A stretch of DNA of 48,698 nt, taken from positions 1-48,698 of the forward strand of contig JAOZVJ010000002.1 of assembly GCA_029938215.1 (NCBI GenBank), written 5' to 3'. Made by a program: the position numbers and the translations under genes. The DNA is from Arcobacteraceae bacterium. Lineage in GTDB: Bacteria; Campylobacterota; Campylobacteria; Campylobacterales; Arcobacteraceae. The notes beneath the pieces are model-generated. The model was not told the origin of the DNA. It ran no database searches and saw only the letters and a program-made list of their open reading frames with translations. This document shows positions 11,518 to 48,698 of this stretch, one piece after another (position 1 is the stretch's first letter; each line of letters begins with the position of its first letter).

Positions 11518-13458
11518 TTGTCACAACAATTACTTCAAAAACAAGCAGATACTATTAGATTTTTGGCTGCTGATATGGTACAACAAGCAAATAGCGGACA
11601 CCCTGGTGCTCCTATGGGTATGGCTGATATTGCTACGGTTTTAAGCAAGCATTTAAAATTAGACCCACAAAATACCAAATGGCTAAATAGAGATAGATTG
11701 GTTTTTTCTGGCGGACATGCTAGCAGTATGGTTTATTCACTTTTGCATCTTTGGGGATTTGATGTAACTATTGAAGATTTAAAACAATTTAGACAAACTG
11801 GGAGTAGAACACCAGGGCATCCAGAATATGGACATACTAGTGGAGTAGAAATTACAACTGGTCCTTTGGGGCAGGGTGTTGCAAATGCAGTTGGCTTTTC
11901 AATGGCAAGTGAATATGCAAAATATTGTTTAAATAGCGAAACTGCAAAAATAATAGATCATCATGTTTATTGTTTTTGTGGCGATGGAGATATGCAAGAA
12001 GGAATTTCTTATGAAGCTTGTGCAACTGCTGGACATCAAAAGCTTTCAAATTTAACTATTATATATGATTCAAATGATATTACAATTGAAGGCGATATTA
12101 GTATTGCTTGGAGTGAAGATGTTGCAAAAAGATTTGAAGCTATTAATTTTGATGTAGTAACTATAGATGGTCATAATTTTGATGCTATTGATAAAGCTTT
12201 TGCAGATAGTAGAAACAGTGACAATCCAACTTTAATAATAGCTAGGACTGCTATTGGAAAAGGTGCTGCCACATTAGAGGGTAGTCATCATACTCATGGA
12301 GCTCCCTTGGGACATGAAGAATTATGTGCTTCAAAAGATAAGGCTTGTTTTGATTCTAATGAATCTTTTGTTGTTTCTGATGATATAAAAAAAGCTTTTG
12401 ATAAAACTTCAAGCGGAGCGTTGTTAAGTAAAGCCTGGAATAAACTTGTAAAAAAAGATTTACCGTTAAGCGAACAAAATGAAACTTTAAATGCTTTATT
12501 AAATCCTGATTATTCAAAAATTCAATATCCTGATTTTAGTGAAATAAAAGAGATGGCAACTAGAGATTCAAATCATAAAATTTTAAATGCTATTGCTAAA
12601 GCTGTTCCGTCTTTTATTGGTGGAAGTGCAGATTTAGCACCATCAAATAAAACAGAATTGAATGGACTTGGAGATTTTCCAAAAGGAAGAAATATCCATT
12701 TTGGTATCAAAGAGCATTCAATGGCAGCAATAGTAAATGCTATGAGTATTTATGGCTTATTTAGAGTTTTTAGTGCAACATTTTTTATATTTAGCGATTA
12801 TTTAAAGCCAGCAGCTAGAGTAGCAGCTTTGGCAAATATACCTGCTCATTTTGTTTGGACTCATGATAGTATTGGTGTTGGAGAAGATGGTGCAACACAT
12901 CAGCCAATTGAACAACTTAGTCAATTTAGAGCATTGCCAAATTTTTATACTTTTAGACCAGCAGAAGCAACTGAAAATATAGAATGTTGGAAAAAAGCAT
13001 TAACTATGCAAGCTCCAACTGCATTTGTTTGTTCAAGACAAAAACTTAAAACTTTAAAACCTCAAAAAGAATTTGGTGAAGTTTCAAACGGTGGATATTT
13101 ACTTGCAAAGAGGGAAAATGCAACAGTTACACTTATGGCAAGTGGTAGCGAAGTAATGCTTTCTCTTATGACAGCATGCCATCTTGAAGATGATTTTGGA
13201 ATCAAATGTAATATTGTTTCTGTCCCTTGTTTTGACTTATTGTGTGAGCAAGATAAAACATACATAGATAAGATAATAAATCCAGATACAACCGTAATAG
13301 CAGTAGAAGCAGCATCTGCGATGGAATACTATAAATTTGCAGATTATGTTATAGGTATGGAAGGCTTTGGAGAAAGCGGACCAGCTGGAGAACTTTTTGA
13401 TAAATTTGGTTTTACAATAGATAAATTAAAATTAAAAATTAAAGAATTGATTAATTAA
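11518..13458 (+). CDS. tkt: Transketolase
   Basis: TTG start after AGGA. 646 aa with ANSGHPGAPMGMADIA, the ThDP motif GDGDMQEG, and HDSIGVGEDGATHQP. Confidence 0.95.
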   Translation: MSQQLLQKQADTIRFLAADMVQQANSGHPGAPMGMADIATVLSKHLKLDPQNTKWLNRDRLVFSGGHASSMVYSLLHLWGFDVTIEDLKQFRQTGSRTPGHPEYGHTSGVEITTGPLGQGVANAVGFSMASEYAKYCLNSETAKIIDHHVYCFCGDGDMQEGISYEACATAGHQKLSNLTIIYDSNDITIEGDISIAWSEDVAKRFEAINFDVVTIDGHNFDAIDKAFADSRNSDNPTLIIARTAIGKGAATLEGSHHTHGAPLGHEELCASKDKACFDSNESFVVSDDIKKAFDKTSSGALLSKAWNKLVKKDLPLSEQNETLNALLNPDYSKIQYPDFSEIKEMATRDSNHKILNAIAKAVPSFIGGSADLAPSNKTELNGLGDFPKGRNIHFGIKEHSMAAIVNAMSIYGLFRVFSATFFIFSDYLKPAARVAALANIPAHFVWTHDSIGVGEDGATHQPIEQLSQFRALPNFYTFRPAEATENIECWKKALTMQAPTAFVCSRQKLKTLKPQKEFGEVSNGGYLLAKRENATVTLMASGSEVMLSLMTACHLEDDFGIKCNIVSVPCFDLLCEQDKTYIDKIINPDTTVIAVEAASAMEYYKFADYVIGMEGFGESGPAGELFDKFGFTIDKLKLKIKELIN

Positions 13459-13905
13459 ATAAATGGAAATCATTAATAGTGCAGTTTTTTTGGGTTTCAA
13501 CAATTGCACTATTACTTGGAATTATACTCTACTATATGTTTCCAAGTAAAAATAGAAAAGATTTTTAATCTAACTAAAGAATAAGAATTTATTAAAAAAA
13601 ACTTAAAAATAAAAATTTATTAAAAAAACTAAAAAAATAAGATAAATCAATAACTTTTAATATAAAAGAAGATAAAATTTTGTTGGTTCCGTATATAAAA
13701 ACAAAAAAATTATGTAATTGTTTTGTTTAAAATATTTTGGACATATAAACAAAGTTAAAGTTTAAAATAACTTTTGAAATATGTTACTTAATGTAATACT
13801 TTTTTTAGTGTTACATTCTTTGATAAATTTTGATTTTTTTAAGATTACCTTAAAAAAAGTTAGGTTATACTTTTACTAAGTTCAAGTTAAATTTAAGGAG
13901 AAAAA

Positions 13906-15516
13906 ATGAAATTGAATAAGTTAGTTTTAAGTACTGTTGCAGCTGCAACTTTAATGAGTGTTAATGCTGTAGCATTTGATGCAGAAATATCATATGAGAG
14001 AGAATGTCAAGGTTGTCATGGACCTGCTCATCAAGGTGGTGTTGGTAGTGATATTAGACCTGATGTTATCAAGGGTAAAAATGCTCAAATGTTAGCTGAA
14101 ACCATTTTAGAAGGTAGAGCTGGTACAGCAATGCCTCCACACAATGCGATTTTATCTAAAGGTGACGCTTCGGCAATGGTTGATTATTTACAACATTTTA
14201 TGGGTAAAAAAGAGATGGTTTTAACTCTTGATGCTGTTAAAGCAAAATGGAGAACTTTTAACGACAGAATGAAATTATTTAAAAAATATCCAAAAGCTGC
14301 AGATGTATCTGATGCTAAAGATATTTGTTTTGTAACAGAGAGAGATGCTTCTAAAGTTACTTTCTTAGATGGTACAAAAGGTACAAAACTATCAACTCAC
14401 CCAGCTGGTTTTGCTGTGCATGTTACAGTTACAAATAAAAGACAGCCAAGATATGCGTACTCTATATCTAGAGACGGTCTTCTTACAATGTTTGATTTAA
14501 ATTCTAAAGGTCAGCAAAAAATTGCTGAAGTTAGAGTTGGATCTGAGTCTAGAGGACTTGCAGTTTCTCCAGATGGTAAATATGTTATGGCTGGTAACTA
14601 CACTCCAGGTGGAGCAGTACTTTGTGATGCTATGACTTTAGAGCCACTTAAAGTATACCCTACTTCAAGCGTAATTAATAACGAAGGTAACATTGAATCT
14701 TCAAGAGTTGCTTCAATTGCTGATACACCATATGGACCTTACTTTGCATTTGCACTTAAAGATGCTGGTCATGTTTATATCGTAGATTATTCTAAACCAG
14801 ATTTTCCAGTAGTTGGTGATATTCCAAATATTGGTAACATTCTTCATGATGCATTCTTAAATGAAGGTAAAGAAATCGGTAGATACTATATGATTGCTTC
14901 TCAAGGTTCTGATTTAATTGGTATCGTTGACTTTAAAACTAAATCTTTAGCTGCTAAAGTTTATACAGGTTCTAAAGCTAAGCCACATCCAGGTCAAGGT
15001 TCATCTTGGTACAATGAAGAATATGGACAATTGCATGCAACTGTTAATATGAATGTTGGTCAAGTAACAATCTGGGACAATAACTGGGATGTTGTAAGAC
15101 ATATACCAACAGGTGGAGGAGCTTTATTTGTAGGTACATCTGAGCATACACCTTGGATTTGGGCTGATAATGTATTAGGTGGACCAGCTAACTGGAATAA
15201 AGTACACTTAGTAAACAAACAACATTTAGAAGTTGATAGAATTATTGAAGTTGGTAAAAAAGAAGGTAAACTTATTGATGCTAAATCTCATAAAACTATT
15301 GCTTCTTGGAAAGTTCCTACTTCTAAAGTAGTTCCAAGAATTTTACATGCTGAGCCAGCAAACCATGGTCAATGGACTATGATTTCTGAGTGGAATACAG
15401 GTAGAATTGGTATCTATGAAGCTACTACAGGTAAATTTGTTAAGTATATCACAGGATTGACAACTCCTACATTTACTTACTCAATTGAGCATAGACAAAC
15501 TATACCAGGCGCTTAA
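13906..15516 (+). CDS. nirS: Cytochrome cd1 nitrite reductase
   Basis: RBS AAGGAG. 536 aa with a signal peptide, N-terminal haem c site CQGCH, then a long beta-propeller region with typical cd1 segments (FAVHVTV..., PHPGQGSSW). Confidence 0.9.
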   Translation: MKLNKLVLSTVAAATLMSVNAVAFDAEISYERECQGCHGPAHQGGVGSDIRPDVIKGKNAQMLAETILEGRAGTAMPPHNAILSKGDASAMVDYLQHFMGKKEMVLTLDAVKAKWRTFNDRMKLFKKYPKAADVSDAKDICFVTERDASKVTFLDGTKGTKLSTHPAGFAVHVTVTNKRQPRYAYSISRDGLLTMFDLNSKGQQKIAEVRVGSESRGLAVSPDGKYVMAGNYTPGGAVLCDAMTLEPLKVYPTSSVINNEGNIESSRVASIADTPYGPYFAFALKDAGHVYIVDYSKPDFPVVGDIPNIGNILHDAFLNEGKEIGRYYMIASQGSDLIGIVDFKTKSLAAKVYTGSKAKPHPGQGSSWYNEEYGQLHATVNMNVGQVTIWDNNWDVVRHIPTGGGALFVGTSEHTPWIWADNVLGGPANWNKVHLVNKQHLEVDRIIEVGKKEGKLIDAKSHKTIASWKVPTSKVVPRILHAEPANHGQWTMISEWNTGRIGIYEATTGKFVKYITGLTTPTFTYSIEHRQTIPGA

Positions 15517-15563
15517 TAGCATTTATTTTCTCTCTCTCTTTTTGAGAGAGGGAAGATATAAAA

Positions 15564-15602
15564 AAAGGTAAGAAGTACTTTTTGTACTTTTTGCCTTTTT
15601 TT
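15564..15602 (+). terminator. Rho-independent terminator after nirS
   Basis: 15-bp stem AAAGGTAAGAAGTAC (15564-15578) / GTACTTTTTGCCTTT (15584-15598; two G-U pairs), T5 loop and trailing T-run. A CT/GA-rich hairpin at about 15528-15555 precedes it. Confidence 0.8.
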
Positions 15603-15727
15603 ATTGTCGATTTAAAATTATAAACGGAAAATATAAATCATTGTATTTTAATTTTTTAATAAGTATAAAATGTATTTTAAAGTTTCTATTGTATAATTTC
15701 GAATAAACTAATTTTATAAGGAAAGTC

Positions 15728-16846
15728 ATGAAAATTTTTGGAATATTTTTTATCTTATTTTTATCTTTTTTAAGTGCTAAATATTTGGATACTAAAAGTT
15801 GTGCAGAGTGCCATGAGATGATTCATTATGAGCATACACATTCGATGCATCATAATTCATCTTTATTTAAAGATGAGTTTCATAGAAAAATTAAAGAAAA
15901 AACATATCCTAATAGTTATCTTTGTGCTTTATGTCATACGCCTGCTGCAAAAAATCTAAGAGCAGTTATTACAGGAAAAGAGCAACCAAGCCAAACAAAA
16001 GAACAATCTGATGGTGTTTCTTGTTTTTATTGCCATCAAATAAACAAAGTTCTTATTACAAAGCATGAAAATATAAATTTTTATGCTTTTTCTCCAGGCT
16101 CAAAACCAAAGTTTTTTGGAAACTTAAAAAATCCAGATACCAGTGATAAACATAAAAGCGACAGTACAAATAAAATTTATAAAAATTCTCAAGTTTGTAT
16201 GGGGTGTCATGGTAAAAAATTTAACAAATATGATGTAGAAATATGCAATGGATTAGATGAAAAAGGAAAAACAAGCGATTGTATAAGTTGTCATATGCCT
16301 AAATTTCCTGGAGGCACTACAAAACTTAATAAAAGAGGAAGAGAAGAATACACATCTCACGAGTTTCTTGGAATAAGATCTGATGAAATGATACAAAAAG
16401 CAGTTGAATTAAGTTTAAAAGTTTTGGATAAGAATTCGATACAATTAACAATAAAAAATAAAATGGGTCATTCTATAATAATGCAACCAATGAGATTAAA
16501 ATTTGCTCAAACTGAAATTGTAAGATTTGGAAAAGTAGTTTGGAAAAATTTTAAGAAATATCCAATAGAAGACAAAAAAGCAACTTTTACAATTCTTTTT
16601 AAAAACAATGATGGCAAGCAGGTTCTTCCTCCATCTGCAACTGGATATAAATATAAAAATAATTTAAAAGCAAATCAAGCAAAAGAAATTGTTTATAAAG
16701 TGCCAGAACTTCAAAAAGGTGATATTATAAAAAGTACTTGGATAAGTTATGTTTTAAGACCGGCTTTGGCAAAAACTTTAAAAATAACTGATAGGGAAAT
16801 GTTAAAAAAATATATTGGGACGAAAACTAAAATAGTTGTTAAATAA
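15728..16846 (+). CDS. Pentahaem c-type cytochrome with a haem-free C-terminal domain
   Basis: 372 aa with a signal peptide. All five CxxCH sites (CAECH, CALCH, CFYCH, CMGCH, CISCH) fall in the first ~190 aa. It has its own TATAAT (15692-15697) after the nirS terminator. Confidence 0.85.
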   Translation: MKIFGIFFILFLSFLSAKYLDTKSCAECHEMIHYEHTHSMHHNSSLFKDEFHRKIKEKTYPNSYLCALCHTPAAKNLRAVITGKEQPSQTKEQSDGVSCFYCHQINKVLITKHENINFYAFSPGSKPKFFGNLKNPDTSDKHKSDSTNKIYKNSQVCMGCHGKKFNKYDVEICNGLDEKGKTSDCISCHMPKFPGGTTKLNKRGREEYTSHEFLGIRSDEMIQKAVELSLKVLDKNSIQLTIKNKMGHSIIMQPMRLKFAQTEIVRFGKVVWKNFKKYPIEDKKATFTILFKNNDGKQVLPPSATGYKYKNNLKANQAKEIVYKVPELQKGDIIKSTWISYVLRPALAKTLKITDREMLKKYIGTKTKIVVK

Positions 16847-16866
16847 ATACTAATTTTATAATACTT

Positions 16867-16900
16867 GGAGGTAAATTTGTAAAAGTTACCTCCTTTTTTT
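16867..16900. terminator. Bidirectional terminator between the pentahaem cytochrome gene and the Sel1-repeat gene
   Basis: Stem GGAGGTAA (16867-16874) / TTACCTCC (16886-16893) followed by T7. Confidence 0.7.
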
Positions 16901-16911
16901 ATTGTAAAGTT

Positions 16912-17532
16912 TTAGTATTTTTCCAAATTAAATTCTTCCCACATTAATGATGCTTTTTTACTTCCAGTATCTTTTGCTTTTTTAATCCAAAAAGAAGCTT
17001 TTTTGTAATCAACCTTTGTTCCTTGACCACCAATATACATAAAACCCAAATTTAATTGAGCATTAATATTTCCAGCACTTGCAGATTTTTCATACCATTT
17101 TAGAGCCATTTTTAAATCAGGTTTAGTTCCTAATCCTCCAGTGTAAAGATATCCCAAATTATAAGCAGCTTCTGAATTCCCAGCATTTCCAGCTTTTTCA
17201 AACCACTTTAAAGCTTTTTTAAAATCTTGCTTTACGATAATCCCTGAGGCATAAATATTTCCTAACTTATTAAAAGCATAAATATTTCCAGCATTTGCAG
17301 ATTTTTCAAACCATACAAAAGATGTTTTTTGATTTTTCTCTATACCATCGCCATTTGCGTACATAATGCCTATATTTAACATTGCACGATTATCGCCTTC
17401 TTTTGATGCAATAAGAAAATTCTCAAAAGCTTGTTTAAAATTTTCTTTTTTATAAAGACTTAATCCGTCATCATAACTTCCGCCAAATAAATATGTGCAT
17501 ACTAAAACTGATGTAAACATTTTTTTCAACAT
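16912..17532 (-). CDS. Secreted Sel1-like repeat (SLR) protein
   Basis: 206 aa with a signal peptide. Tandem ~36-aa repeats of the type A..W[FY]EK[SA]A..GN..A...LG.[MI]Y..G.G (four to five copies). Confidence 0.85.
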   Translation of the reverse strand: MLKKMFTSVLVCTYLFGGSYDDGLSLYKKENFKQAFENFLIASKEGDNRAMLNIGIMYANGDGIEKNQKTSFVWFEKSANAGNIYAFNKLGNIYASGIIVKQDFKKALKWFEKAGNAGNSEAAYNLGYLYTGGLGTKPDLKMALKWYEKSASAGNINAQLNLGFMYIGGQGTKVDYKKASFWIKKAKDTGSKKASLMWEEFNLEKY

Positions 17533-17598
17533 TGATAAATTCCTTTTTAGAGATTTGTTGTAAATTTTTAAATTATATCCAAAAATACTAATATTTAA

Positions 17599-17612
17599 TT
17601 GATAATTATCAA
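17599..17612. promoter_or_regulatory. Perfect Crp/Fnr-family box TTGAT-N4-ATCAA in the divergent Sel1 / haem d1 operon promoter region
   Basis: TTGATAATTATCAA. A -10-like GATAAT/TAATAT (17633-17640) lies at class II-type spacing. The start codon is at 17673. Confidence 0.65.
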
Positions 17613-17672
17613 CTTAAATGAATTATAAATATGATAATATATTACCTTTAAAATATAGAGGATAGCTAGTAT

Positions 17673-18002
17673 ATGAATAGTATAGTTAAATCGGTTTTTT
17701 TTATAATATTTTTATTTAATATTGTATATGCCAATCAATTAACAACAGGTGAAAAAGTTTTTAAAGCATATTGTTGGGGATGTCATCATCAAACATCAGT
17801 AGCGTTTGGTCCATCATTTGAAGAGATTGCAAATAAAAGATCAACAGGTGAAATACAAGGACATATCGTAAGTCCTAAATCTACATACAAACAACTTGGA
17901 CATAAAAGAAGTGTAATGCCAGCTTTTGGCGATAAGTTATCGCAAAAAGAACTTGATCTTATTACTAATTTTATTTTAAACTATAAGACAAAAGGTAAAT
18001 AA
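17673..18002 (+). CDS. Monohaem class I cytochrome c (NirC/NirM-like by context)
   Basis: 109 aa with a signal peptide, a single CWGCH site and a distal Met region (RSVMPAF). It is the first gene of the nirJ-nirF-nirE operon. Confidence 0.75.
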   Translation: MNSIVKSVFFIIFLFNIVYANQLTTGEKVFKAYCWGCHHQTSVAFGPSFEEIANKRSTGEIQGHIVSPKSTYKQLGHKRSVMPAFGDKLSQKELDLITNFILNYKTKGK

Positions 18003-19123
18003 TGTTTAGACTTTCAAATTTAATAAAATCAACTTTGGAAAATAAAAAAGAACGACTTTTAAATGGTTCTATAATGATATGGAATTTTACAAATAGATGT
18101 AATCTTTTTTGCCATCATTGTTATAGTAAAGCAGATGCAAACGGAACAGATACTTTATCGTTCGAGCAAATTTGTGATACAATTCCTGGTATGTTAAATG
18201 CTGGTGTTAAATTTGTTATATTTAGCGGTGGAGAGCCATTGATAAGAAAAGATATTTTTGATATCGCAGATGAAATGAAAAAAGCTGGAATCATTACATA
18301 TTTATCTACAAATGGTATGTATATAAATGAAAAAAATGCAAAACAAATTGTAGATACATTTAATTATATAGGCATTAGTATTGACGGAATAGAAGAGATT
18401 CATAATCAATTTAGAGGACATAAAGATTCATATAAAAAAGCAATAGAAGGCATAAAGCATATTCAAAAAGCAGGTGGAAATGCAGGTATTAGATTTACAT
18501 TGACAAAAGAGACGAGAGATAGTTTTTATTCGATGTTTGATTTGGTTGAGGAATTAGGTGCTAATAAACTTTATATATCACATTTAGTATATTCTGGTCG
18601 CGGACTTGATAATCTTGAAATAGATATTACAAAAGAGGAAAGAAGAAAATATGTTGAGTTTATTATAGACAAAGCATTTGAATATTACAAAGCAGGAAAA
18701 GATATAGATGTAGTTACTGGAAATATGGAGATGGATTCTGTTTTATTAATTCAAAGATTTCAAAAAGATTATCCAGAGTTTGTCGATTCTTTAACTACTA
18801 AGCTTAAGGCTTGGGGCGGAAATAGTGCAGGTAATCGTTTGGGTAATATGGATTGGGAAGGAAATGTTAAGCCAGACCCATTTTTTCCAGAATATATTGG
18901 TAATTATTTAGAAACTTCATTTGAAGATGTTTGGGCAGGAAAAAGTAGTGATATTGTTGAAAAATTAAGACAAACACCACGAAATATAAGTGGCAGATGT
19001 AAAGAGTGTAAATATCTTGATATTTGTAATGGCGGAAGCAGAAGTAGAGCTTACGCGATACATGATGATTTATGGGCAGAAGATCCATCGTGTTATTTAT
19101 CTCTTGATGAGATAAGTAAATAA
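18002..19123 (+). CDS. nirJ: Haem d1 biosynthesis radical SAM protein NirJ
   Basis: 373 aa. Radical SAM motif CNLFCHHCY (CxxxCxxC) plus a C-terminal Cys cluster CKECKYLDICNGG. The ATG overlaps the upstream TAA. Confidence 0.85.
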   Translation: MFRLSNLIKSTLENKKERLLNGSIMIWNFTNRCNLFCHHCYSKADANGTDTLSFEQICDTIPGMLNAGVKFVIFSGGEPLIRKDIFDIADEMKKAGIITYLSTNGMYINEKNAKQIVDTFNYIGISIDGIEEIHNQFRGHKDSYKKAIEGIKHIQKAGGNAGIRFTLTKETRDSFYSMFDLVEELGANKLYISHLVYSGRGLDNLEIDITKEERRKYVEFIIDKAFEYYKAGKDIDVVTGNMEMDSVLLIQRFQKDYPEFVDSLTTKLKAWGGNSAGNRLGNMDWEGNVKPDPFFPEYIGNYLETSFEDVWAGKSSDIVEKLRQTPRNISGRCKECKYLDICNGGSRSRAYAIHDDLWAEDPSCYLSLDEISK

Positions 19124-19152
19124 AAAATTAAAATTAAAAATTGGGAGAAAAA

Positions 19153-20298
19153 ATGAGAATTAAAAATCAAATATTATTTGTACTTATATTTATTTGTTCA
19201 TCATTGTTCGGATATGAAAAATATTTTGTAGTTGAGAGAGAATCATCATCGTTGGCTGTTATTGAAAATGGCATAAAATATTCTGTTATGGAAAATATGA
19301 GAAATATGAATCATGGTGTTGTAAAATTTGAAGGAAAAGATGGTTATGTTATCAGTCGTGATGGTTATGTAATCAAATTTGATCCAATCAAAGAAAAAAT
19401 TTTAGCTGAATATAAAACAAGCAAAAGTGCAATTGGATTTGTAATAGGCAAGCATTATGTAGCAGTTGCAAATTATGATGATAAAAGTGTCGATATTTTG
19501 GATAGAGATTTAAAACCTATAAAAAAAGTTAAAACTGGATCAAAAAATGTTGGCATAAAAATATATAAAGATTATTTGATTTTTGCACAAATGGATAATG
19601 ATAAACTTACTATTTTAAAAGATATGAATTGTGGGGCAAAAAAACCAAATTTTAAATTATATAAAGAATTTGAAAATGTTGGAGAGTTGCCATTTGATGC
19701 GATGATTCAAGATAATAAATATATTGTAGGATTTTTTACATCTAAGCATTTTGGTACTATTGATTTAGATGCAATGACTTTTAAAAAAGTAAAAATATTT
19801 TTAGATGAAAAAAGAAAAATGGTGCTAAAAGTTCCTCATTTTGGTTTTTGGTCAATAGGTGGAGATAAGGTTTTTGTTCCTGCAGTTGGTGATAATAAAG
19901 TTTTAGTTTATGATATGAATTTTAATTTTATACAAAATATTAAAACAGAAGGAATGCCAGTATTTACAAGTTTAAGTCCTGATAAAAAACATTTAGCTGT
20001 TACTTTTAGTGGTAAAAAATTTCCAGTTATTCAAATAATAGATACAAAAACCTTAAAAATTATAAAAAGATTTGAATTTGAAGGTAAAGTTTTACATGTA
20101 AGATGGTCAAAAAATAAACCACATTTGTATGTTTCTGTAAATGATGCAAATGTAGTAGCAGTTCTTGATGTAAACGATTGGTATAGAGCAAGAGATGTTT
20201 TAAATATAAAAAAACCATCTGGTATCTTTATATATGATGCCCAAGGTCATGAATCACCCGCAACAACTTTTCAAAGTAAAGGACGAAAATATGAGTAA
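19153..20298 (+). CDS. nirF: NirF-like cd1-type beta-propeller protein (haem d1 biosynthesis), no haem c site
   Basis: ATG 19153, preceded by GGAGA, is preferred over TTG 19141. 381 aa with a signal peptide, a propeller-like repeat pattern and no CxxCH. Confidence 0.7.
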   Translation: MRIKNQILFVLIFICSSLFGYEKYFVVERESSSLAVIENGIKYSVMENMRNMNHGVVKFEGKDGYVISRDGYVIKFDPIKEKILAEYKTSKSAIGFVIGKHYVAVANYDDKSVDILDRDLKPIKKVKTGSKNVGIKIYKDYLIFAQMDNDKLTILKDMNCGAKKPNFKLYKEFENVGELPFDAMIQDNKYIVGFFTSKHFGTIDLDAMTFKKVKIFLDEKRKMVLKVPHFGFWSIGGDKVFVPAVGDNKVLVYDMNFNFIQNIKTEGMPVFTSLSPDKKHLAVTFSGKKFPVIQIIDTKTLKIIKRFEFEGKVLHVRWSKNKPHLYVSVNDANVVAVLDVNDWYRARDVLNIKKPSGIFIYDAQGHESPATTFQSKGRKYE

Positions 20299-21025
20299 GA
20301 CAGTACATTTAGTTGGAGCTGGACCTGGAGATATAGAATTAATGACAGTAAAGTCTTTAAGACTTATAAGAGAAGCAGATGTTATTATTTTTGATAGGCT
20401 AGCAAATCCTTTAATTCTTAAAGAAGCACCGCAAGGATGTGAATTTATAGATGTTGGAAAAACTGATGGAAAACATCCAGTAAAACAACCTGAAATTAAT
20501 GAGATAATATATCAATCATCTTTAAAATATGAAAATGTTGTAAGATTAAAAGGTGGTGATCCATTTGTATTTGGTAGAGGTGGTGAAGAAGCTTTGTATT
20601 TAAGAGAAAGAGGTGTTGGTTTTGATATAATTCCGGGGATTACTTCAGCAATTAGTGTTCCTGCATATGCTGGAATACCAGTTACTCAAAGAGGAGTTGT
20701 GAGTTCTTTTAGAGTAATAACAGGACATGAAGCTCCAGGAAAAGCAGTATCTCAAATTGATTGGGATTCTTTTGCAACAGATGAGACTTTGGTATTTTTA
20801 ATGGGATTAAATAATCTTGGAAGAATATCGTCAAATTTGATTAAAATTGGAAAAAGAAAAGATTATCCTTGTGCTGTTATTAGCAAAGGAACTACAGAAA
20901 ATCAAAAAGTTGTTATAGGAACACTTGAAACAATAGAAGAAAAAGCAAAAGGATTAGAAACTCCAGCTCTTATAATTGTTGGTGAAGTTGTTAATTTAAG
21001 AGATGAACTTAGGTGGTTTGACTAG
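20291..21025 (+). CDS. nirE: Uroporphyrinogen-III C-methyltransferase (SUMT; NirE/CobA)
   Basis: ATG 20291 overlaps the nirF stop (ATGAGTAA). MSKTVHLVGAGPGDIELMTVKSLRLIREADVIIFDRL and RLKGGDPFVFGRGGEE are SUMT signatures. Confidence 0.85.
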   Translation: MSKTVHLVGAGPGDIELMTVKSLRLIREADVIIFDRLANPLILKEAPQGCEFIDVGKTDGKHPVKQPEINEIIYQSSLKYENVVRLKGGDPFVFGRGGEEALYLRERGVGFDIIPGITSAISVPAYAGIPVTQRGVVSSFRVITGHEAPGKAVSQIDWDSFATDETLVFLMGLNNLGRISSNLIKIGKRKDYPCAVISKGTTENQKVVIGTLETIEEKAKGLETPALIIVGEVVNLRDELRWFD

Positions 21026-43734: not shown

Positions 43735-44226
43735 ATGAACAAGAGAATAATTTTAAGTATAGGTGCAGCAGCACTTTTGGCATCGTCTTTATTTGCGTAT
43801 GGTTCGCAAGGTGGGATGAAACAAGGTTGTAAAAAAATGAGTAGTCAATATGGGATGAGCATGAAAAAAGCTAATCATCACAAAAAAGACGGTAGAATTA
43901 TGAGAGAAATTATGATGCTTGATTTGACCGATAAGCAAATAGTTAAGATTAGAAGTATTATTGCAGATAGCATAAAAGATATGTCAAATCCAAGTGATGC
44001 TTTTACAAAAGAGAATTTTGATAAAGAACAGTTTGTAAAATTAGCAAAAGAAAAAAGAGATGACAGAATTGAGCATAAAGCAGAAGTGATAGCAAAAATT
44101 TATGAAGTTCTTGATTCTTCTCAAAAGAAAGATTTAAAAACAATTCTTGATATGAAAGATGTGATGAAGAAAAAAATGATTAAAAATAGGGGTTTTAGTG
44201 ATCAATATCGCAATGGTAGAAGATGA
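43735..44226 (+). CDS. Periplasmic Spy/CpxP/ZraP-like (LTxxQ) protein
   Basis: 163 aa with a signal peptide. LTDKQIVKI and LDSSQKKDL motifs, helical K/E-rich, and a short His-rich stretch ANHHKK. Confidence 0.6.
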   Translation: MNKRIILSIGAAALLASSLFAYGSQGGMKQGCKKMSSQYGMSMKKANHHKKDGRIMREIMMLDLTDKQIVKIRSIIADSIKDMSNPSDAFTKENFDKEQFVKLAKEKRDDRIEHKAEVIAKIYEVLDSSQKKDLKTILDMKDVMKKKMIKNRGFSDQYRNGRR

Positions 44227-44878
44227 TACTGAGTTAGCAGAAGTTTTAATTCAATATTTATCAAAATATAATATCAAAGTAACAAATTATGAAGACCCAT
44301 TTATAGCTTTAAGTGCTATAGGTTTAAAAGAGTATGATTTAGTAATTCTAGATCTTACTCTTCCTGGTCTTGATGGTTTGGAAGTTTGTAAAGAATTAGT
44401 GGCTAAATATGATTTTCCAATAATTATATCAAGTGCCAGAAGTGATATCACGGATAAAGTAATTGCTCTTGAATTGGGAGCTGATGATTATTTGCCAAAG
44501 CCTTATGATCCTAGAGAACTTGAAGTTAGGATTAAAACTATTCTTAGAAGATACAATAAAGACATACATTCAGTAGCGCCAGCTAAAAAACAAGAAATAT
44601 TTGTGCTAGATGAAGAAAAGCAAGAAATAACAAAAAATGGTCATTTTGTAAAATTTACACCAGCAGAATATCAAATTATGGCGTTAATGTGCCAAAGAAA
44701 GGGTTTCATTGTATCGAGATATGATATATTGGAAAATAGTGATTTTTTAAACAGTGATGAAGATAATGGTAGCATAGCAGTAATTATTAATAGAATTAGA
44801 GCAAAAATTGAAGATGAGCCTAAAAAACCAAAATATTTTCTTACAATTAGAGGTATGGGATATAGGTTAGTGGAATGA
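44198..44878 (+). CDS. OmpR-family response regulator
   Basis: GTG start, overlapping the upstream gene by 29 nt. REC domain (VEDD...LVILDLTLPGLDG...) plus a winged-helix C-terminus (TIRGMGYRL). Confidence 0.9.
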   Translation: MINIAMVEDDTELAEVLIQYLSKYNIKVTNYEDPFIALSAIGLKEYDLVILDLTLPGLDGLEVCKELVAKYDFPIIISSARSDITDKVIALELGADDYLPKPYDPRELEVRIKTILRRYNKDIHSVAPAKKQEIFVLDEEKQEITKNGHFVKFTPAEYQIMALMCQRKGFIVSRYDILENSDFLNSDEDNGSIAVIINRIRAKIEDEPKKPKYFLTIRGMGYRLVE

Positions 44879-46122
44879 TATTCAATAAAAATTCAATTTT
44901 ATTTACAATAACAATAACTTTTATAGTTTCTTTTATTTTAATTTTTATAAGCTTTTTTGTTCTTTATAATAGTAGTAGCAAAAGAGAAAAACATTTTCAA
45001 GAAAAAAGAAACAGTGATGTTGTTAGAATTTTTATGAGCGAATATAGATTTGGTGGAATTACAAAAGATTTAAAACAAAATTTAAAAGAGATGGGTTTTT
45101 CTATAATATCTGACTTTAATGAACAAGAAAAAATTTTAAACAATAAAAGTTTGAAAATAAAAAAATTTAAAAAAAGAAATAAAGGTTTTGTAAAATTATT
45201 GCAACTTAACAACAATAATATGATCTTTATAAATACTCCAAGATGCAAAGTAATTCTGAAAAATAATATTAATATTAAAAATCAACAAAATGTGATTTTG
45301 ATGGTATTTTTAACTATATTGATATCATTTATTGTTTTATATTTTACAACAATTAAAAAATTAAAACCTTTAAAAATTTTAAAAGATAAAGTAAAAAATT
45401 TTGGCGATGAAGATTTTGATATAAATTGTTCTACAAATAAAGAAGATGAAATATCTTTATTAGCAAACGAATTTGATAAGTCAGCTAAAAAATTAAAAAA
45501 GATAAAAGAGTCAAGAAATGTTTTTATACGAAATATAATGCATGAGCTTAAAACCCCAATAACAAAAGGAAAATTTTTAACACAACTTTCACAAACAAAA
45601 GAAAATACTGATAAAATGCAAAAAGTTTTTTATAGATTGGAAACTTTAATAAATGAATTTGCCACCATAGAAGAATTAATTTCTGTTAAAAAAACATTAA
45701 ATAAAAAACCGTATTATTTAGAAGACATTATAGACAATTCCATAGATTTGCTTATGTGTGATGAAGATAATATAAAAAAAGAATTTAAAAATTTAAAAAT
45801 AAATGTAGATTTTAAGCTTTTTTCAATTGCGATAAAAAATCTACTTGACAACGGAATAAAGTATTCGGCAAATAAAAAAGTAAAAATAAAAACATTTGAT
45901 AATCAAATAGTATTTGAAAATTTAGGTGAAAAATTAAAATATCCACTTGAAAATTATTTTGAACCATTTTTTAAAGGAGATAATATAAAATCAAACCAAA
46001 GCTTTGGTTTGGGACTTTATATTGTAAAGCATATTTTAGAGGCGAATGATTGTAGTTTTAAATATGAATACAAAAATGAAACTAATAAATTTATTATAAA
46101 AAATAAAATTTATTCGAGATAG
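44875..46122 (+). CDS. Sensor histidine kinase (two TM helices, HAMP-like linker, HisKA, HATPase)
   Basis: ATGA overlap with the regulator gene. H-box IRNIMHELKTPIT, N-box NLLDNGIKYS, G2 SFGLGLYIV. Confidence 0.85.
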   Translation: MIFNKNSILFTITITFIVSFILIFISFFVLYNSSSKREKHFQEKRNSDVVRIFMSEYRFGGITKDLKQNLKEMGFSIISDFNEQEKILNNKSLKIKKFKKRNKGFVKLLQLNNNNMIFINTPRCKVILKNNINIKNQQNVILMVFLTILISFIVLYFTTIKKLKPLKILKDKVKNFGDEDFDINCSTNKEDEISLLANEFDKSAKKLKKIKESRNVFIRNIMHELKTPITKGKFLTQLSQTKENTDKMQKVFYRLETLINEFATIEELISVKKTLNKKPYYLEDIIDNSIDLLMCDEDNIKKEFKNLKINVDFKLFSIAIKNLLDNGIKYSANKKVKIKTFDNQIVFENLGEKLKYPLENYFEPFFKGDNIKSNQSFGLGLYIVKHILEANDCSFKYEYKNETNKFIIKNKIYSR

Positions 46123-46128
46123 TTTTTA

Positions 46129-46163
46129 AAATATATTCTGATAATTTATATCAGAATATATTT
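46129..46163. terminator. Bidirectional terminator between the kinase gene and the convergent SBP-like gene
   Basis: Perfect 15-bp stem AAATATATTCTGATA (46129-46143) / TATCAGAATATATTT (46149-46163) with a 5-nt loop. Confidence 0.8.
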
Positions 46164-46168
46164 AATTT

Positions 46169-47041
46169 TTATTTTGCCATATCTATAAAAGAATCCCAAT
46201 CTTTCCAAAATAAAGCTTTATCATTTTCTTTAAATTGTTTTGGAACTTCGATATTTGGTATCACAGGTATAAAACTAGCACCACCGCTAAACATTTCCTG
46301 AGCTTTTTGTGAAACTAGAAAATCAGCTGCTTTTTTAGTTTCTTCATTGTAGCCTTTTTTCATAATCATCACTTGCGTAAGATGAAGCGCACCTTCTTTT
46401 GGCCAACATATTGCCGAACCGTTGTCTTTTGAGAACATTGCAAAAGACAGAGGCATAATTCCGATGTCGTATTCTTTTTTTGAAACGGCTTTATTTACAT
46501 CTATTGGTAAACCTAAATATTCAACATCATTTTCAACAAAATCTTCACCCTTTTGACCTAAAGCTTGTTTGTAAAATTGTTTAAAAAGAACAGCCGGAGG
46601 AGTGGCTATATCTGTTGTGATAATTTTACCTTTAAATCTAGGTTCAAGAAGAGATTCCCAAGTTTGAGGAGGATTTTCCATCTCTTTATTGTAAAATATT
46701 ACTATTGGCATTATAAAAATAGGTTTTAATATCCATTTGTTATCTAAAAGTTTTTTTGATTCTAAATCACTATCTAAGTCATATTTGTATTCATCATCAA
46801 AAGCTTCTAAATTCTTTAAGTAATTTCTTTCCCATAATAACTCTGGACGAATAGTAACTATAATATCTGGCACTTCATCCATTTTACCTTCTTTGATTTT
46901 TTCTAAATATACTAAATCATCAGAATAATATTTCTTAGAAGAATTAAACACTTCAGAATTTGGACAAAGTTTTTTTAATTCCATTAGTGTATTTCTAGCC
47001 GCATTAACTGGTACTGATATATAAATTTTATTTTTTTCCAT
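46169..47041 (-). CDS. Solute-binding-protein homologue (Fe3+/polyamine SBP-like) without signal peptide
   Basis: 290 aa. Starts MEKNKIYISVP, with no hydrophobic leader or lipobox. IVIFYNKEMENPPQTWESLLEPRFKGKIITTD resembles the hinge region of class II SBPs. Confidence 0.6.
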   Translation of the reverse strand: MEKNKIYISVPVNAARNTLMELKKLCPNSEVFNSSKKYYSDDLVYLEKIKEGKMDEVPDIIVTIRPELLWERNYLKNLEAFDDEYKYDLDSDLESKKLLDNKWILKPIFIMPIVIFYNKEMENPPQTWESLLEPRFKGKIITTDIATPPAVLFKQFYKQALGQKGEDFVENDVEYLGLPIDVNKAVSKKEYDIGIMPLSFAMFSKDNGSAICWPKEGALHLTQVMIMKKGYNEETKKAADFLVSQKAQEMFSGGASFIPVIPNIEVPKQFKENDKALFWKDWDSFIDMAK

Positions 47042-47042
47042 T

Positions 47043-47822
47043 TTATTCTCCTATTTCTTTTTCTAACATTTCAAGTGTTTTTTCATCTAACTTACTTCCA
47101 TGTCTTAAATCTTCTCTGAAATTTTCAAGAATTTTATCTATTTTTGTAAAATATTTTAGATGTTTTCTTTCAACTTCGTCAGATACAATAAGTTTAGACA
47201 TAGAGCCATTTTTCATAATAACTCTTTTTTTAGCAGTTACAATTAAGCTTGGATCATGAGAAGCAATTAAAACCATTTTGCCTTTTGAAGCAAGTATTTC
47301 AATTCCTTTAGTTTTATTAATCCCAGCATTTTCAATTTCATCAACTAAAACAATAGGTGCATTACTGATAAGTGCAGTATCAGCTATCATCAATGCTCTT
47401 GATTGTCCACCACTTAAAGATGTAAGATTTGAAGACGCAGCCAAAGGTTCGCCTGCTAGACTATTTGCCATTTCTAATATTTTTTCTACAATATTTTCAT
47501 CTTCGATTTTTCTACTTTTTGCATGAAGTTTTATAAAACTATCTACATCTAAATCCATCATAAAGTGCATATTTTGAGATAAAGATGCTGTTATTTGCAT
47601 ACCTAGCGGATCAATTTCTTCTCCATTTGCAAGAACTTTTCTACCTGATGGAGAATCCCCATTTGCTAATTGTTCAAGATCAGATAATAATAAACTTTTT
47701 CCAGACCCTGTTGGACCCGCTAAAATTATAATATCACCTTTTTTAATTATCAATTCTTCTACAGCTTCTCTGTTACCATTTTTATCCTCACCGGATATGA
47801 TTTTTATTTCTTCGATATTCAT
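47043..47822 (-). CDS. Stand-alone ABC-type ATPase (single NBD, no membrane domain)
   Basis: 259 aa. Walker A GPTGSGKS, signature LSGGQSRA, Walker B IVLVDEIE, H-loop IASHD. Confidence 0.85.
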   Translation of the reverse strand: MNIEEIKIISGEDKNGNREAVEELIIKKGDIIILAGPTGSGKSLLLSDLEQLANGDSPSGRKVLANGEEIDPLGMQITASLSQNMHFMMDLDVDSFIKLHAKSRKIEDENIVEKILEMANSLAGEPLAASSNLTSLSGGQSRALMIADTALISNAPIVLVDEIENAGINKTKGIEILASKGKMVLIASHDPSLIVTAKKRVIMKNGSMSKLIVSDEVERKHLKYFTKIDKILENFREDLRHGSKLDEKTLEMLEKEIGE

Positions 47823-48517
47823 ACTACCTCTTCTATATCCATTTTTATAACATTACCCATTTGATAATCAGCACCAAGTCTTGTTTCTCCTTCACAATAC
47901 GAACATACAGCAGAAGGCATATCATGTCTAAGCTCCATACCATTTAAAGTTTGAGTTGATTGTGCATTTAATACCAATCTTTTAAGATTTAATGCTCCCA
48001 TTCCAGTTAAACCATTTAATTCAATTGCTTTTGCTGTTGGATTTACCTCTAAAACATTACTTCTAAAAACTTCTCGTTCTGCTTGAGAAACCATATCTCC
48101 CTTTGTGATAACAACAACATCAGCAGTTGTAAGCATAGGACCTATTTTTCTAGGCGTATCAATACCACTAACACAATCAACAACTGCAATAGCCATACAG
48201 TCTTTAATTGCAGGTGCACATCTATGACATAAACCAGCAGTTTCAACGATAGTTATATCTGCTTTATGAGAATTACCAAATTTAAATATCTCTTCCGCAT
48301 TTACAGCGCCGTAATGGTCAGGACAAACATAATCACTTATACCAACTACGACAGGAACACCAAGTTTTTCTTTAAAAAGTTCTCCGTCTGTTGTTTGATG
48401 ACAATCAATTTTGCCTATCGCAACATCTATACCATCTTTTTTTAAAAGTTTAATAAGGTGAATTAGCACCAATGTTTTTCCAGAAGAAGGCGGTCCAGCT
48501 ACTGTTATAAATTTCAT
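47819..48517 (-). CDS. G3E-family (HypB/UreG/CobW-like) P-loop GTPase, Cys/His-rich putative metallochaperone
   Basis: 232 aa. Walker A GPPSSGKT, ETAGLCHRCAP (compare HypB ENVGNLVCPA), TKGD in the NKxD position. Extra ligand candidates are KIDCHQ, DYVCPDH and CSYCEGE. RBS AGGAG 8 nt upstream. Confidence 0.65.
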   Translation of the reverse strand: MKFITVAGPPSSGKTLVLIHLIKLLKKDGIDVAIGKIDCHQTTDGELFKEKLGVPVVVGISDYVCPDHYGAVNAEEIFKFGNSHKADITIVETAGLCHRCAPAIKDCMAIAVVDCVSGIDTPRKIGPMLTTADVVVITKGDMVSQAEREVFRSNVLEVNPTAKAIELNGLTGMGALNLKRLVLNAQSTQTLNGMELRHDMPSAVCSYCEGETRLGADYQMGNVIKMDIEEVV

Positions 48518-48557
48518 ATTCTTTACTCCTAAGTTTTTTATTTATTGTAGCAAAATT

Positions 48558-48576
48558 AATAATGATTATCATTGAC
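48558..48576 (-). promoter_or_regulatory. Fur box over the promoter of the GTPase-ABC-SBP operon
   Basis: The minus strand reads GTCAATGATAATCATTATT, matching 16 of 19 positions of GATAATGATAATCATTATC. TACAAT -10 (48544-48549, minus strand) lies 8 nt downstream. Confidence 0.65.
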
Positions 48577-48698
48577 ATAAATCAATTTTTGTCCAAACCG
48601 TATCACTTATAAACTTTTTGCCAAATTCACTATCATTATTTCCTGAGTTTTTATTATAAGAAATATCAAGATTTATATTATTTTTAAATCCATAAGTA
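48569..48698 (-). CDS. 3' end of an unidentified minus-strand gene (5' end outside the window)
   Basis: Open frame from the window edge: ...TYGFKNNINLDISYNKNSGNNDSEFGKKFISDTVWTKIDLCQ, ending at TGA (48569-48571) inside the Fur box. Too short to assign. Confidence 0.3.
   Translation of the reverse strand, partial: TYGFKNNINLDISYNKNSGNNDSEFGKKFISDTVWTKIDLCQ

Follow-up and report, generated by a model that had tools for sequence, protein, structure and literature searches.

Three genes on the minus strand at one end of the window (the whole stretch of Arcobacteraceae DNA analysed here, 48,698 nucleotides) encode a G3E-family P-loop GTPase (hereafter G), a stand-alone ABC nucleotide-binding domain (A) and a leaderless protein with the fold of a periplasmic substrate-binding protein, or SBP (S). 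They form one inseparable, co-evolving module which extends far beyond the Campylobacterota, and which could plausibly, although we propose it tentatively, be a machine of the cytoplasm that hands over metals at the expense of GTP and ATP, to be placed among the G3E metallochaperone systems. We found no description of this trio in a full-text literature search within CC-licensed papers and bioRxiv, and no curated family matching it. These searches, as well as HMM searches against Pfam and the NCBIfam equivalogs, agree with the original prediction, made from the sequence alone, in which this composition could not be matched to any characterized system.

Organization and promoter of the operon

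G (232 aa; 47,819–48,517; PF02492), A (259 aa; 47,043–47,822; PF00005) and S (290 aa; 46,169–47,041; PF13343) are tightly packed on the minus strand: the ORFs of G and A share 4 nt (ATGA, 47,819–47,822) and a single nucleotide (47,042) separates A from S. A Shine-Dalgarno-like stretch precedes each ORF, namely TAGGAG for G (48,526–48,531, minus strand, 8 nt 5′ of the ATG, read from the sequence), GAGG for A and TAGGAG for S. At the other end of the operon, a perfect 15-bp inverted repeat with a 5-nt loop (46,129–46,163, not assigned to one strand; arms at 46,129–46,143 and 46,149–46,163) has a fold energy of −15.5 kcal/mol (z = −7.3), a stability that no shuffled sequence reached (n = 200). 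This hairpin is a bidirectional terminator common to the trio and to a convergent histidine-kinase gene. The limits of the unit are thus those that had been proposed originally: three overlapping or nearly contiguous genes between a Fur box with its TACAAT promoter and this terminator. G, A and S contain no hydrophobic segment (maximum 19-residue hydropathy <1.6), and there is no permease gene in the operon as contained in the 48.7-kb window, which ends 181 bp upstream of G.

The Fur-box-like operator GTCAATGATAATCATTATT (48,558–48,576, minus strand) agrees at 16 of 19 positions with the 19-bp consensus GATAATGATAATCATTATC and is the only match with three or fewer mismatches in the 48.7 kb, where 0.05 would be expected by chance. 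Directly downstream, it abuts an extended −10 element, TGcTACAAT (48,544–48,552, minus strand), recognized both by reading the sequence and by a promoter scan. The latter returned ATGATA-17-TACAAT, with TG ahead of the −10 hexamer, and the box overlaps the −35 region of this promoter. An identical box is found in the Sulfurimonas MAG L013, even though the upstream genes differ and homology between both sequences begins only ~12 nt ahead of the box, and a related one, ATCAATGATAATAATTATT, precedes the trio in the complete Sulfurimonas genome L093. Judging from the motif, the operon of this Sulfurimonas-type lineage would be under a Fur-type operator. Fur-like boxes also occur at the trio of Vibrio L002, but most other trio loci are not preceded by a clear Fur box. 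In fact, a scan for the 7-1-7 Fur motif retrieved only 5 of 20 G-A-S loci with three or fewer mismatches, a weak enrichment; most operon starts are uncertain, and we discarded Fur control as a general property across taxa. The induction by iron starvation advanced in the original prediction is consistent with the box and its retention in L013 and L093, but as a sequence motif confined to few of the loci. A TonB-dependent receptor gene upstream of the operon in the window also appears unlikely, as the 120-nt partial ORF present there (48,579–48,698, ending in ...VWTKIDLCQ*) is unlike the receptor C-termini of loci L008 and L010; this stretch upstream of the Fur box may be intergenic.

A divergent G3E GTPase

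G matched the CobW/HypB/UreG family PF02492 with an E value of 6e-13 (49.2 bits, cutoff 20.7). Its AlphaFold2 (AF2) model (pLDDT 81, falling below 50 in the C-terminal CSYC region) has a G3E fold, with HypB (2hf8, 2wsm) and UreG (4hi0, 5xkt) as best structural matches (target-normalized TM 0.69–0.75). Besides the Walker A (GPPSSGKT) and the ExxG (ETAG) of G3E GTPases, G contains the motifs CPDH (C65–H68), ETAGLCHRCAP (C97, H98, C100), TKGD (138–141) and a C-terminal CSYCEGE (C205, C208). None of these motifs (the last one read as CSYCxGE) varies among 35 sequences of many phyla, the invariant residues including five Cys and one His, so that the motifs highlighted in the original prediction, including the additional Cys/His clusters, characterize the whole family. 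The NKxD guanine-specificity motif of G3E proteins is absent and TKGD invariably takes its place family-wide. GLCHRCAP, which sits directly after the ExxG of switch II, is a candidate Cys/His metal motif.

We rejected the assignment of G to HypB, UreG, MeaB, MobB, CobW or ZigA, for which it scored far under the curated cutoffs: 42 bits for the HypB equivalog TIGR00073 (cutoff 121.2) and 34.5 bits for the UreG equivalog TIGR00101 (cutoff 204.2), with similar values for the paralogous G described below (52.9 and 34.4 bits, respectively), an E value of 0.09 for the ZigA model and one of 0.0015 for CobW_rel_Se, the latter involving the P-loop only. HypB and UreG do resemble G in their small size, P-loop G3E fold and ExxG followed by a Cys/His motif in switch II. 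However, they share only 19–22% identity with G, which differs from them by TKGD instead of NKxD and by the extra invariant CPDH and CSYCxGE; moreover, they are partnered by HypA or UreEFH, whereas G is accompanied by an ABC ATPase and a protein of SBP fold. No hyp or ure families appeared among the recurrent annotated neighbour clusters of 85 trio loci. The Zur-regulated COG0523 proteins (ZigA, ZagA/YciC, Zng1, CobW) are also G3E GTPases under a Fur-family metal-starvation operator, and the allocation of scarce metal that we presume for G would be comparable to their role. Nevertheless, neither the CobW_C domain nor the CxCC motif was matched in G, which has a CxxC within GLCHRCAP instead, its operator is a Fur box and not a Zur box, and it is obligately linked to two other proteins.

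An ABC ATPase without membrane partner

A matched PF00005 (ABC_tran, E value 8e-13) and has a complete set of catalytic motifs, kept in 18 aligned family members: Walker A (GPTGSGKS), Q-loop (LSQNM), LSGGQ signature (LSGGQSRAL), Walker B (LVDEIE) and H-loop (SHD(P)). It ends in a C-terminal helical tail and, as had been noticed originally, is a single ABC domain devoid of any transmembrane part; neither in the window operon nor in L093 is a membrane domain fused to it or encoded in the same operon. A did not reach any NCBIfam transporter equivalog, its best match being a weak one to WtpC. With a profile built for the trio-type A, members scored above 248 bits while nearly all other ABC ATPases of the same loci remained at or below 46 (one reached 126). 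By these scores, A is an ABC clade of its own, always travelling with G and S.

An ABC domain working without membrane partner in a cytoplasmic metal-cofactor machine, a role that for the trio is a proposal, is known from SufBC2D, whose expression rises in many bacteria under iron limitation or stress. The trio differs from it by the absence of a SufB/SufD-like partner, by the distinct clade of A and by the association with a G3E GTPase and an SBP fold; SufB/SufD families were likewise absent among the recurrent annotated neighbour clusters.

A binding-protein fold predicted to stay in the cytoplasm

S matched PF13343 (SBP_bac_6) with an E value of 2e-27 and, weakly, SBP_bac_11/ModA. Its AF2 model (pLDDT 92.9) is a class-II (cluster D) two-lobe SBP fold of the ferric-binding-protein type, for which Foldseek retrieved Campylobacter jejuni FbpA (1y4t) and FutA1 (2pt2) as best matches (TM ~0.76, 16–18% identity). 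By sequence, the closest solved relatives are the 2-aminoethylphosphonate binder 4r6y and 6lkg. All 26 aligned S homologues lack a leader and start either with MxxNxIYISVPVN or with a DUF1858 domain, and the median N-terminal hydropathy of S is 1.15, as compared with 3.1–3.2 for the SBPs of neighbouring importers. In the window, S cannot be extended in the 5′ direction because its ORF already starts at the first start codon past a stop, 1 nt after A. A hidden signal peptide was therefore rejected and S is predicted to be cytoplasmic in every homologue examined, which extends to the family what the original prediction had claimed for a single protein.

S thus shares fold and Pfam family with FbpA and FutA1 (IdiA) but, apart from the low identity, it differs from them by the missing signal peptide and by its conserved residues. 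In the alignment of 26 homologues, the two subtypes of the trio (see below) have in common invariant columns of Pro, Trp, Phe and Gly and a single Asp, D100, which is the only polar one. Fe(III) ligands of the FbpA class (Tyr-Tyr plus His/Glu or an extra Tyr) would call for Tyr or His, and neither residue occupies a column that is invariant in both. The ligand of S may consequently be an organic compound or a chelate, or S may be a scaffold only. The originally suggested binding of metal by S agrees with the FbpA-like fold, although metal ligands are not evident among its invariant columns.

Distribution and a nitrosative-stress paralogue

G is encoded in 568 or more GTDB species genomes, both bacterial and archaeal (the archaea including Methanospirillum and Methanolliviera). 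G, A and S are adjacent in 85 loci, wherever the contig permits, in two fixed orders, so that the unit recognized originally in one contig recurs across phyla and in both domains. Their identity matrices correlate pairwise (r = 0.90–0.93), and the lengths of S and A are paired (long-long in 35 loci, short-short in 26, mixed in 6). Natural G-A fusions exist (P0156, 613 aa; P0160, 509 aa), and in P0252 a G fragment is joined to a NifS-like cysteine desulfurase; no A-permease fusion occurred among the matches viewed. The lineages that dominate the trio matches are known as anaerobes, which would fit an oxygen-sensitive metal or thiolate chemistry.

The trio of the window belongs to a subtype with order G-A-S and a short S. 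A paralogous subtype, consisting of a DUF1858-S fusion, G and an extended A (whose N-terminus faintly matches DUF1858, E value 0.059), is found in Rrf2/Hcp nitrosative-stress operons. DUF1858 is presumably an Hcp-associated domain and a relative of the ScdA N-terminal domain. Among the long-type loci, hcp is present in 12 of 38, commonly downstream of the trio, and about two thirds have no hcp in the examined range; further neighbours are Rrf2 (13 loci), cupin (11), YgbA_NO (4) and an 80-aa Cys-rich ORF (18). Through its DUF1858 and its Rrf2, Hcp and YgbA_NO neighbours, this long subtype recalls the NsrR/HcpR nitrosative-stress regulon and RIC/YtfE/ScdA, from which it differs by being a three-protein, NTP-driven system without the hemerythrin-like di-iron domain. 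The window copy has neither DUF1858 nor an Hcp neighbour.

These recurrent neighbours might indicate a maturation or repair factor dedicated to one metalloenzyme, much as HypB serves hydrogenase and CooC serves CODH. Its target would be Hcp with its hybrid [4Fe-2S-2O] cluster in the case of the paralogue and some Fe-S or Ni-Fe enzyme in that of the window type. Every characterized G3E protein indeed serves a defined metallocentre (reviewed in PMC9164220), and the fusion to a NifS-like cysteine desulfurase would fit such a role as well. However, no enzyme gene regularly accompanies the window-type trio, that of L093 is isolated, with an efflux operon on one side and a mobile element on the other, and hcp is missing within the examined range of most long-type loci. 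In addition, Escherichia coli Hcp matures, as far as we know, without any trio-like factor. We consider a dedicated maturation factor unlikely.

Neighbouring importers and the nature of the cargo

Most window-type trios outside Sulfurimonas have transporters in their vicinity. Considering the loci with enough flanking sequence, a polytopic membrane protein is encoded on the same strand within 6–8 genes in 13 of 17 G-A-S loci and in all 5 short S-G-A loci, that is, in 18 of 22 short-S loci. The importers that recur are either NMT1/SsuA-like with BPD_transp_1 (NitT/TauT-like) or Peripla_BP_2 with FecCD (IsdE/FecB-like), and a TonB-dependent receptor (also TonB/ExbBD) adjoins the trio in Gram-negative loci. 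The trio would thus be permease-less, as originally described, in this Sulfurimonas clade but not in general, and permeases accompanying orthologous loci, which the original prediction had itself named as evidence against a chaperone, are in part what we found.

This context, together with the intact catalytic motifs of A, raises the question of whether the trio is an accessory of transport, in which A would energize a permease next door or elsewhere, S would act as a cytoplasmic substrate sensor gating import (trans-inhibition) and G as a metal-sensing switch. Several observations make this doubtful. The neighbouring importers checked with Pfam bring their own ATPase and their own binding protein with signal peptide, and no importer permease is adjacent to the trio in the window, L093, L008, L010, L022 and L030. 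For the Hcp-linked paralogue, just 4 of 33 loci combined an additional ATPase with a permease (a profile-based count of extra ATPases that represents a lower bound). Furthermore, the clade of A tracks G and S and not any permease type, and A has been fused to G but, among the matches viewed, not to a permease.

The cargo of a hand-off machine might also be a different metal (Ni, Co, Zn, Mo/W), a tetrapyrrole or a corrinoid instead of iron, with the box in front of the operon read by Zur, Nur or PerR. The characterized relatives within G3E act on Ni, Co, Zn or B12, two trio loci have TP_methylase and CbiM/CbiQ genes in their vicinity, the weak matches of A and S are to WtpC and SBP_bac_11/ModA, and a role in the import of metal (Ni) for Ni-CODH has been proposed for NitT/TauT importers (PMC6344411). 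Against this, the box follows the classical Fur consensus, neighbours such as TonB, TonB-dependent receptors and FecCD (IsdE/FecB-like) are usually those of iron or haem uptake, and no riboswitch, whether cobalamin, NiCo or Moco, was detected ahead of any of the 16 trio loci scanned. We regard another cargo as quite improbable. Corrinoid salvage, suggested by the CobW-like name, the BtuCDF-like neighbours and TP_methylase/CbiM, found no support, with a cobalamin riboswitch in front of none of these 16 loci; the only one detected in the scan belongs to cbiM.

A putative metal hand-off machine

The link of the trio with metals comes from the G3E fold of G close to the nickel chaperones HypB and UreG, its invariant Cys/His residues, the FbpA fold of S, the Fur box and the importer and TonB neighbours. 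Its cytoplasmic location is suggested by the leaderless S, which contrasts with the hydrophobic N-termini of neighbouring importer SBPs, and by the DUF1858 fusion. Which metal is involved, which protein binds it, in what order it is transferred and what ATP contributes, we infer as follows. The machine would act after uptake, S binding the incoming metal species, probably iron or an iron chelate in this organism. By analogy with SufC acting on SufB/D, a dimer of A might work as a clamp that, upon ATP binding and hydrolysis, opens S or remodels a partner. G would then accept the metal at the switch-II Cys/His site (GLCHRCAP), with the participation of CPDH and the C-terminal CSYC, and pass it to client proteins under GTP control. 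In this Sulfurimonas-type genome, Fur would repress the operon and iron scarcity would switch it on, whereas the DUF1858-S paralogue would carry out an equivalent job in Rrf2/Hcp nitrosative-stress operons.

Several observations argue against this hand-off machine: the permeases adjoining most window-type loci outside Sulfurimonas make a role within transport possible, the context of the paralogue is NO stress and not iron, G, presumed to use GTP, has TKGD for the canonical NKxD, Fur-like boxes are few elsewhere and the CSYC region is modelled with low confidence. Even so, the G-A fusions and the clearly cytoplasmic DUF1858-fused paralogue strengthen a chaperone-like over a transporter function. 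A chaperone rather than a transporter, as the original prediction suggested, is still the best reading, despite the permeases near most short-S loci.

A broader possibility, about which we are more reserved, is that the trio is an ancient dedicated cytoplasmic metallochaperone of bacteria and archaea for iron, or for damaged or nitrosylated iron centres. A re-used binding protein would hold the metal or chelate, the ABC ATPase and the G3E GTPase would drive its loading and release, and the paralogues would have split between iron starvation and nitrosative stress/Hcp. If true, this would make it the first G3E system specific for iron and the first known machine to couple ATP and GTP hydrolysis in metal delivery, with transporter parts (ABC ATPase and binding protein) put to a new use away from the membrane; the current annotation of the family wrongly suggests an incomplete transporter. 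To our knowledge, Ni, Co, Zn and B12 have dedicated NTP-driven chaperones, whereas no clear example serves iron, and the intracellular routing of iron in bacteria and archaea is largely unknown, especially in anaerobes reliant on Fe-S and Ni-Fe enzymes. With its three proteins, its occurrence in many phyla and both prokaryotic domains (568 or more species genomes), its Fur-type operator motif in one lineage and its NO-stress paralogue, the trio is a good candidate for this function.

Operon organisation and putative iron control

The three genes lie packed on the minus strand of the window and encode a G3E GTPase (G, 48517-47819, 232 aa), an ABC ATPase (A, 47822-47043, 259 aa) and a leaderless solute-binding-protein homologue (S, 47041-46169, 290 aa). 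G and A share 4 nt (ATGA), a single base separates A from S, and each ORF is preceded by a Shine-Dalgarno-like sequence. Upstream of G, a Fur box (GTCAATGATAATCATTATT, 48576-48558) agrees with the 19-bp consensus in 16 of 19 positions; no other match with at most 3 mismatches occurs in the 48.7-kb window, where 0.05 would be expected by chance. The box occupies the expected -35 position of the promoter, directly followed by an extended -10 element (TGcTACAAT, 48552-48544). Downstream, a perfect 15-bp inverted repeat (46129-46143/46149-46163; -15.5 kcal/mol, z = -7.3) is shared with a convergent histidine-kinase gene and is a bidirectional terminator of both operons. The structure described in the original prediction (three packed genes, Fur box, promoter and terminator) was thus confirmed in every particular. 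The convergent operon (43735-46122, plus strand) encodes an LTXXQ (CpxP/Spy-like) periplasmic protein, a response regulator and the histidine kinase.

Since only 181 bp of the window lie upstream of G, the absence of a permease holds for the visible part of the locus. At that end, a minus-strand open frame (48579-48698) runs off the window, with its stop inside the Fur box (ending in ISDTVWTKIDLCQ), and bears a vague likeness to the end of an outer-membrane beta-barrel. It may be non-coding, since homology with the corresponding locus of a Sulfurimonas MAG (L013) starts only ~12 nt before the Fur box; that locus keeps an identical box and this short flank, and its genes further upstream differ.

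The complete Sulfurimonas genome among the compared loci (L093) carries ATCAATGATAATAATTATT at the equivalent position, and several GATAAT-type repeats precede the trio in Vibrio (L002). A broader scan revealed no convincing Fur box in most other loci, where the trio often lies inside a longer operon. The predicted iron control is therefore a well-supported reading at the motif level for the Sulfurimonas clade only. An Rfam scan of 16 loci detected no riboswitch before the trio; a c-di-GMP-I riboswitch ~5 kb upstream of the Petroclostridium trio (L033:5009-5100) is probably unrelated to it.

A widespread, co-inherited module

A word-indexed search with G retrieved 5209 proteins (E ≤ 0.001), none with an informative name, from Bacillota, Desulfobacterota, Thermodesulfovibrionales, Dehalococcoidia, Bipolaricaulota, Vibrio and others. 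Scanning one genome per GTDB species confirmed G relatives in at least 568 stretches, including the archaea Methanospirillum and Methanolliviera; the best among the matches listed came from a Sulfurimonas MAG (94% identity), which assigns the window to a Sulfurimonas-like organism. As for the conservation of the neighbourhood, G, A and S were adjacent wherever the contig permitted in the 85 loci compared, in two arrangements. The window type (23 loci) consists of G, A (~260-275 aa) and S (~290-300 aa), with a variant in the order short S, G, A (6 loci). The second type (38 loci) has an S of ~405 aa with an N-terminal DUF1858 domain, followed by G and an A of ~335 aa with an N-terminal extension (~85 aa). 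The lengths of S and A go together: both are long in 35 loci and both short in 26, with only 6 mixed cases.

ORFs called in the 85 loci were scored against profiles of G, A and S. Trio-type A proteins scored above 248 bits and almost all other ABC ATPases at most 46 bits (one reached 126), a gap that sets A apart as its own clade. The pairwise-identity matrices of the three proteins were correlated (r = 0.90-0.93), and an exhaustive HMMER search across 1.84 billion representatives uncovered natural G-A fusions (P0156, 613 aa; P0160, 509 aa), one of which includes a DUF1858-like extension. These fusions are Rosetta-stone evidence for joint action of G and A. Taken together, the separate A clade, adjacency, length pairing, matrix correlation and fusions make a physical complex of G, A and S very likely.

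The HMMER search also matched a predicted protein of 372 aa (P0252) in which a fragment from the C-terminal part of a G-like protein continues into a NifS/IscS-like cysteine desulfurase; the join could be an artefact of a frameshift, and the adjacency hints at a link with Fe-S assembly. In L093, genes for a phage-type integrase, ArdA, and TrwB-like and NikA/MobC-like proteins adjoin the trio (11737-20873), which, with the differing neighbourhoods of close relatives, suggests that the module moves horizontally.

Features of the three proteins

G reaches Pfam PF02492 (CobW/HypB/UreG) and has the P-loop, ExxG, switch-II Cys/His motif and fold of the G3E superfamily, but it carries TKGD instead of NKxD and does not belong to HypB, UreG or COG0523. 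Its scores lay far below the curated models for HypB, UreG, MeaB, MobB and ZigA. Across 35 aligned homologues that share 54-88% identity with the window protein and are drawn from many phyla, GPPSSGKT (Walker A), CPDH (C65-H68), ETAGLCHRCAP (C97, H98, C100), C107, TKGD, VSQAEREVF and the C-terminal CSYCxGE (C205, C208) were invariant or essentially so, the final Glu of the latter being conserved in at least 90%; within VSQAEREVF, strict invariance was restricted to V143, S144, A146, E147 and V150. G thus possesses an invariant thiolate/imidazole-rich site beside switch II. Its AF2 model (pLDDT 81) most resembled HypB (2hf8, 2wsm) and UreG (4hi0, 5xkt), with low confidence for the last 45 residues, which hold CSYC.

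In A the ABC nucleotide-binding domain is complete, every catalytic motif being present along with a helical tail; the protein stands without a cognate membrane domain, contains no hydrophobic segment and reached no transporter equivalog model.

S belongs to SBP_bac_6 (E = 2e-27). Its AF2 model (pLDDT 92.9) superposed best on the ferric-binding proteins Campylobacter jejuni FbpA (1y4t) and FutA1 (2pt2; TM ~0.76, 16-18% identity), and its nearest solved relatives by sequence were the 2-aminoethylphosphonate binder 4r6y and 6lkg. S shares the fold of FbpA-class binding proteins but not their export: its ORF cannot be extended upstream and a leader was absent from 26 of 26 aligned homologues, including Gram-positive ones, which agrees with the predicted cytoplasmic location. 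Archaeal window-type S proteins have the same short length. The columns invariant in both subtypes comprise Pro, Trp, Phe, Gly and a single Asp. None of those columns in the 26 homologues is a Tyr or His, and the proposal that S binds a metal or metallocofactor found no support here.

Genomic neighbourhoods of the two types

In metagenome contigs of close relatives, a TonB-dependent receptor gene lies directly upstream of the window-type trio; one such contig also carries ExbB/ExbD/TonB further upstream. Vibrio sp. HA2012 encodes a TonB-dependent receptor and a BPD_transp_1/ABC importer downstream. In Desulfosarcina, the trio is interleaved with genes for a TonB-dependent receptor, a radical-SAM-Peripla_BP_2 fusion, Peripla_BP_2, FecCD, an ABC ATPase and TonB, and other Desulfobacterota show similar arrangements. 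Peptococcaceae, Syntrophomonadaceae, Petroclostridium and Methanospirillum carry beside the trio importers of either of two types (NMT1/SsuA-like with BPD_transp_1 and ABC, or IsdE/FecB-like Peripla_BP_2 with FecCD and ABC), often together with a small SAM methyltransferase. NitT/TauT-family importers beside clade B Ni-CODH have been proposed as metal importers (Inoue et al., PMC6344411).

Among loci with enough flank, a same-strand protein with at least four transmembrane segments occurred within 6-8 genes in 13 of 17 G-A-S loci and in all 5 short S-G-A loci. The absence of a permease therefore stands for the visible window and for L093 (S 78% identical), where the trio stands alone, flanked by a divergent TetR/MacB-type efflux operon and the integrase-bearing mobile region, but not as a trait of the family. 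Such neighbours would fit a transport-accessory or gating role for the trio, which we regard as unlikely; the neighbouring importers checked with Pfam come with an ATPase of their own and with a binding protein whose N-terminus is hydrophobic.

Three Desulfobacterota clusters encode a ~600-aa radical-SAM protein directly upstream of G (L004:8158-9984, L027:8184-9977, L043:1547-3379), with a C-terminal Peripla_BP_2-like domain in two cases and AmmeMemoRadiSam radical SAM enzyme as best NCBIfam resemblance. A Methyltransf_11 gene follows S, then genes for a TonB-dependent receptor, Peripla_BP_2, FecCD, ABC ATPase and TonB; these clusters may represent an anaerobic chelate-processing pathway. In several related metagenome contigs, and not in the window, a BcrAD_BadFG + DUF2229 protein of 1007-1270 aa (L010:12428-16240, L008:12609-15632), an acyl-CoA dehydratase-activase type ATPase, is encoded directly downstream of the trio.

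The DUF1858 type (L008:2663-6183; also L042, L046, L047, L050, L052, L055, L056 and L063-L090) has other recurrent neighbours: an 80-aa Cys-rich ORF (18 loci), Rrf2 (13), Hcp (12), cupin (11), YgbA_NO (4) and Crp/Fnr regulators. These genes make up a nitrosative-stress neighbourhood, and the DUF1858-type trio seems to belong, as a so far uncharacterised member, to the response of anaerobes to nitrosative stress. The recurrence of Hcp raises the idea of a factor dedicated to the maturation or repair of one enzyme, such as Hcp itself, to which we likewise give a low probability; metal/chelate uptake genes and a Fur box mark the context of the window type, whereas that of the DUF1858 type is NO stress and Hcp.

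A possible metal hand-off machine

All three proteins are soluble; they are inherited together, co-evolve and in some cases are fused. Our leading reading, which we hold tentatively, is that they may form a cytoplasmic metal hand-off machine, working in a manner like that of G3E metallochaperone systems: S would hold the incoming metal species, A would serve as a clamp driven by ATP, in the way of SufC within SufBC2D, and G would take the metal and deliver it under GTP control, like HypB, UreG and COG0523 proteins. The same machine might instead serve another metal or a tetrapyrrole, a still less probable variant whose mechanism overlaps with metal hand-off. The original idea of a chaperone rather than a transporter is thus partly supported and is still the best reading. 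The lack of a match to any characterised system also held: no curated NCBIfam model names G, A or S of either subtype, and we found no description of the trio among open-licence papers and bioRxiv. The trio is a very widespread, unannotated and mechanistically unusual module, which bears on the question of how anaerobes allocate intracellular iron.
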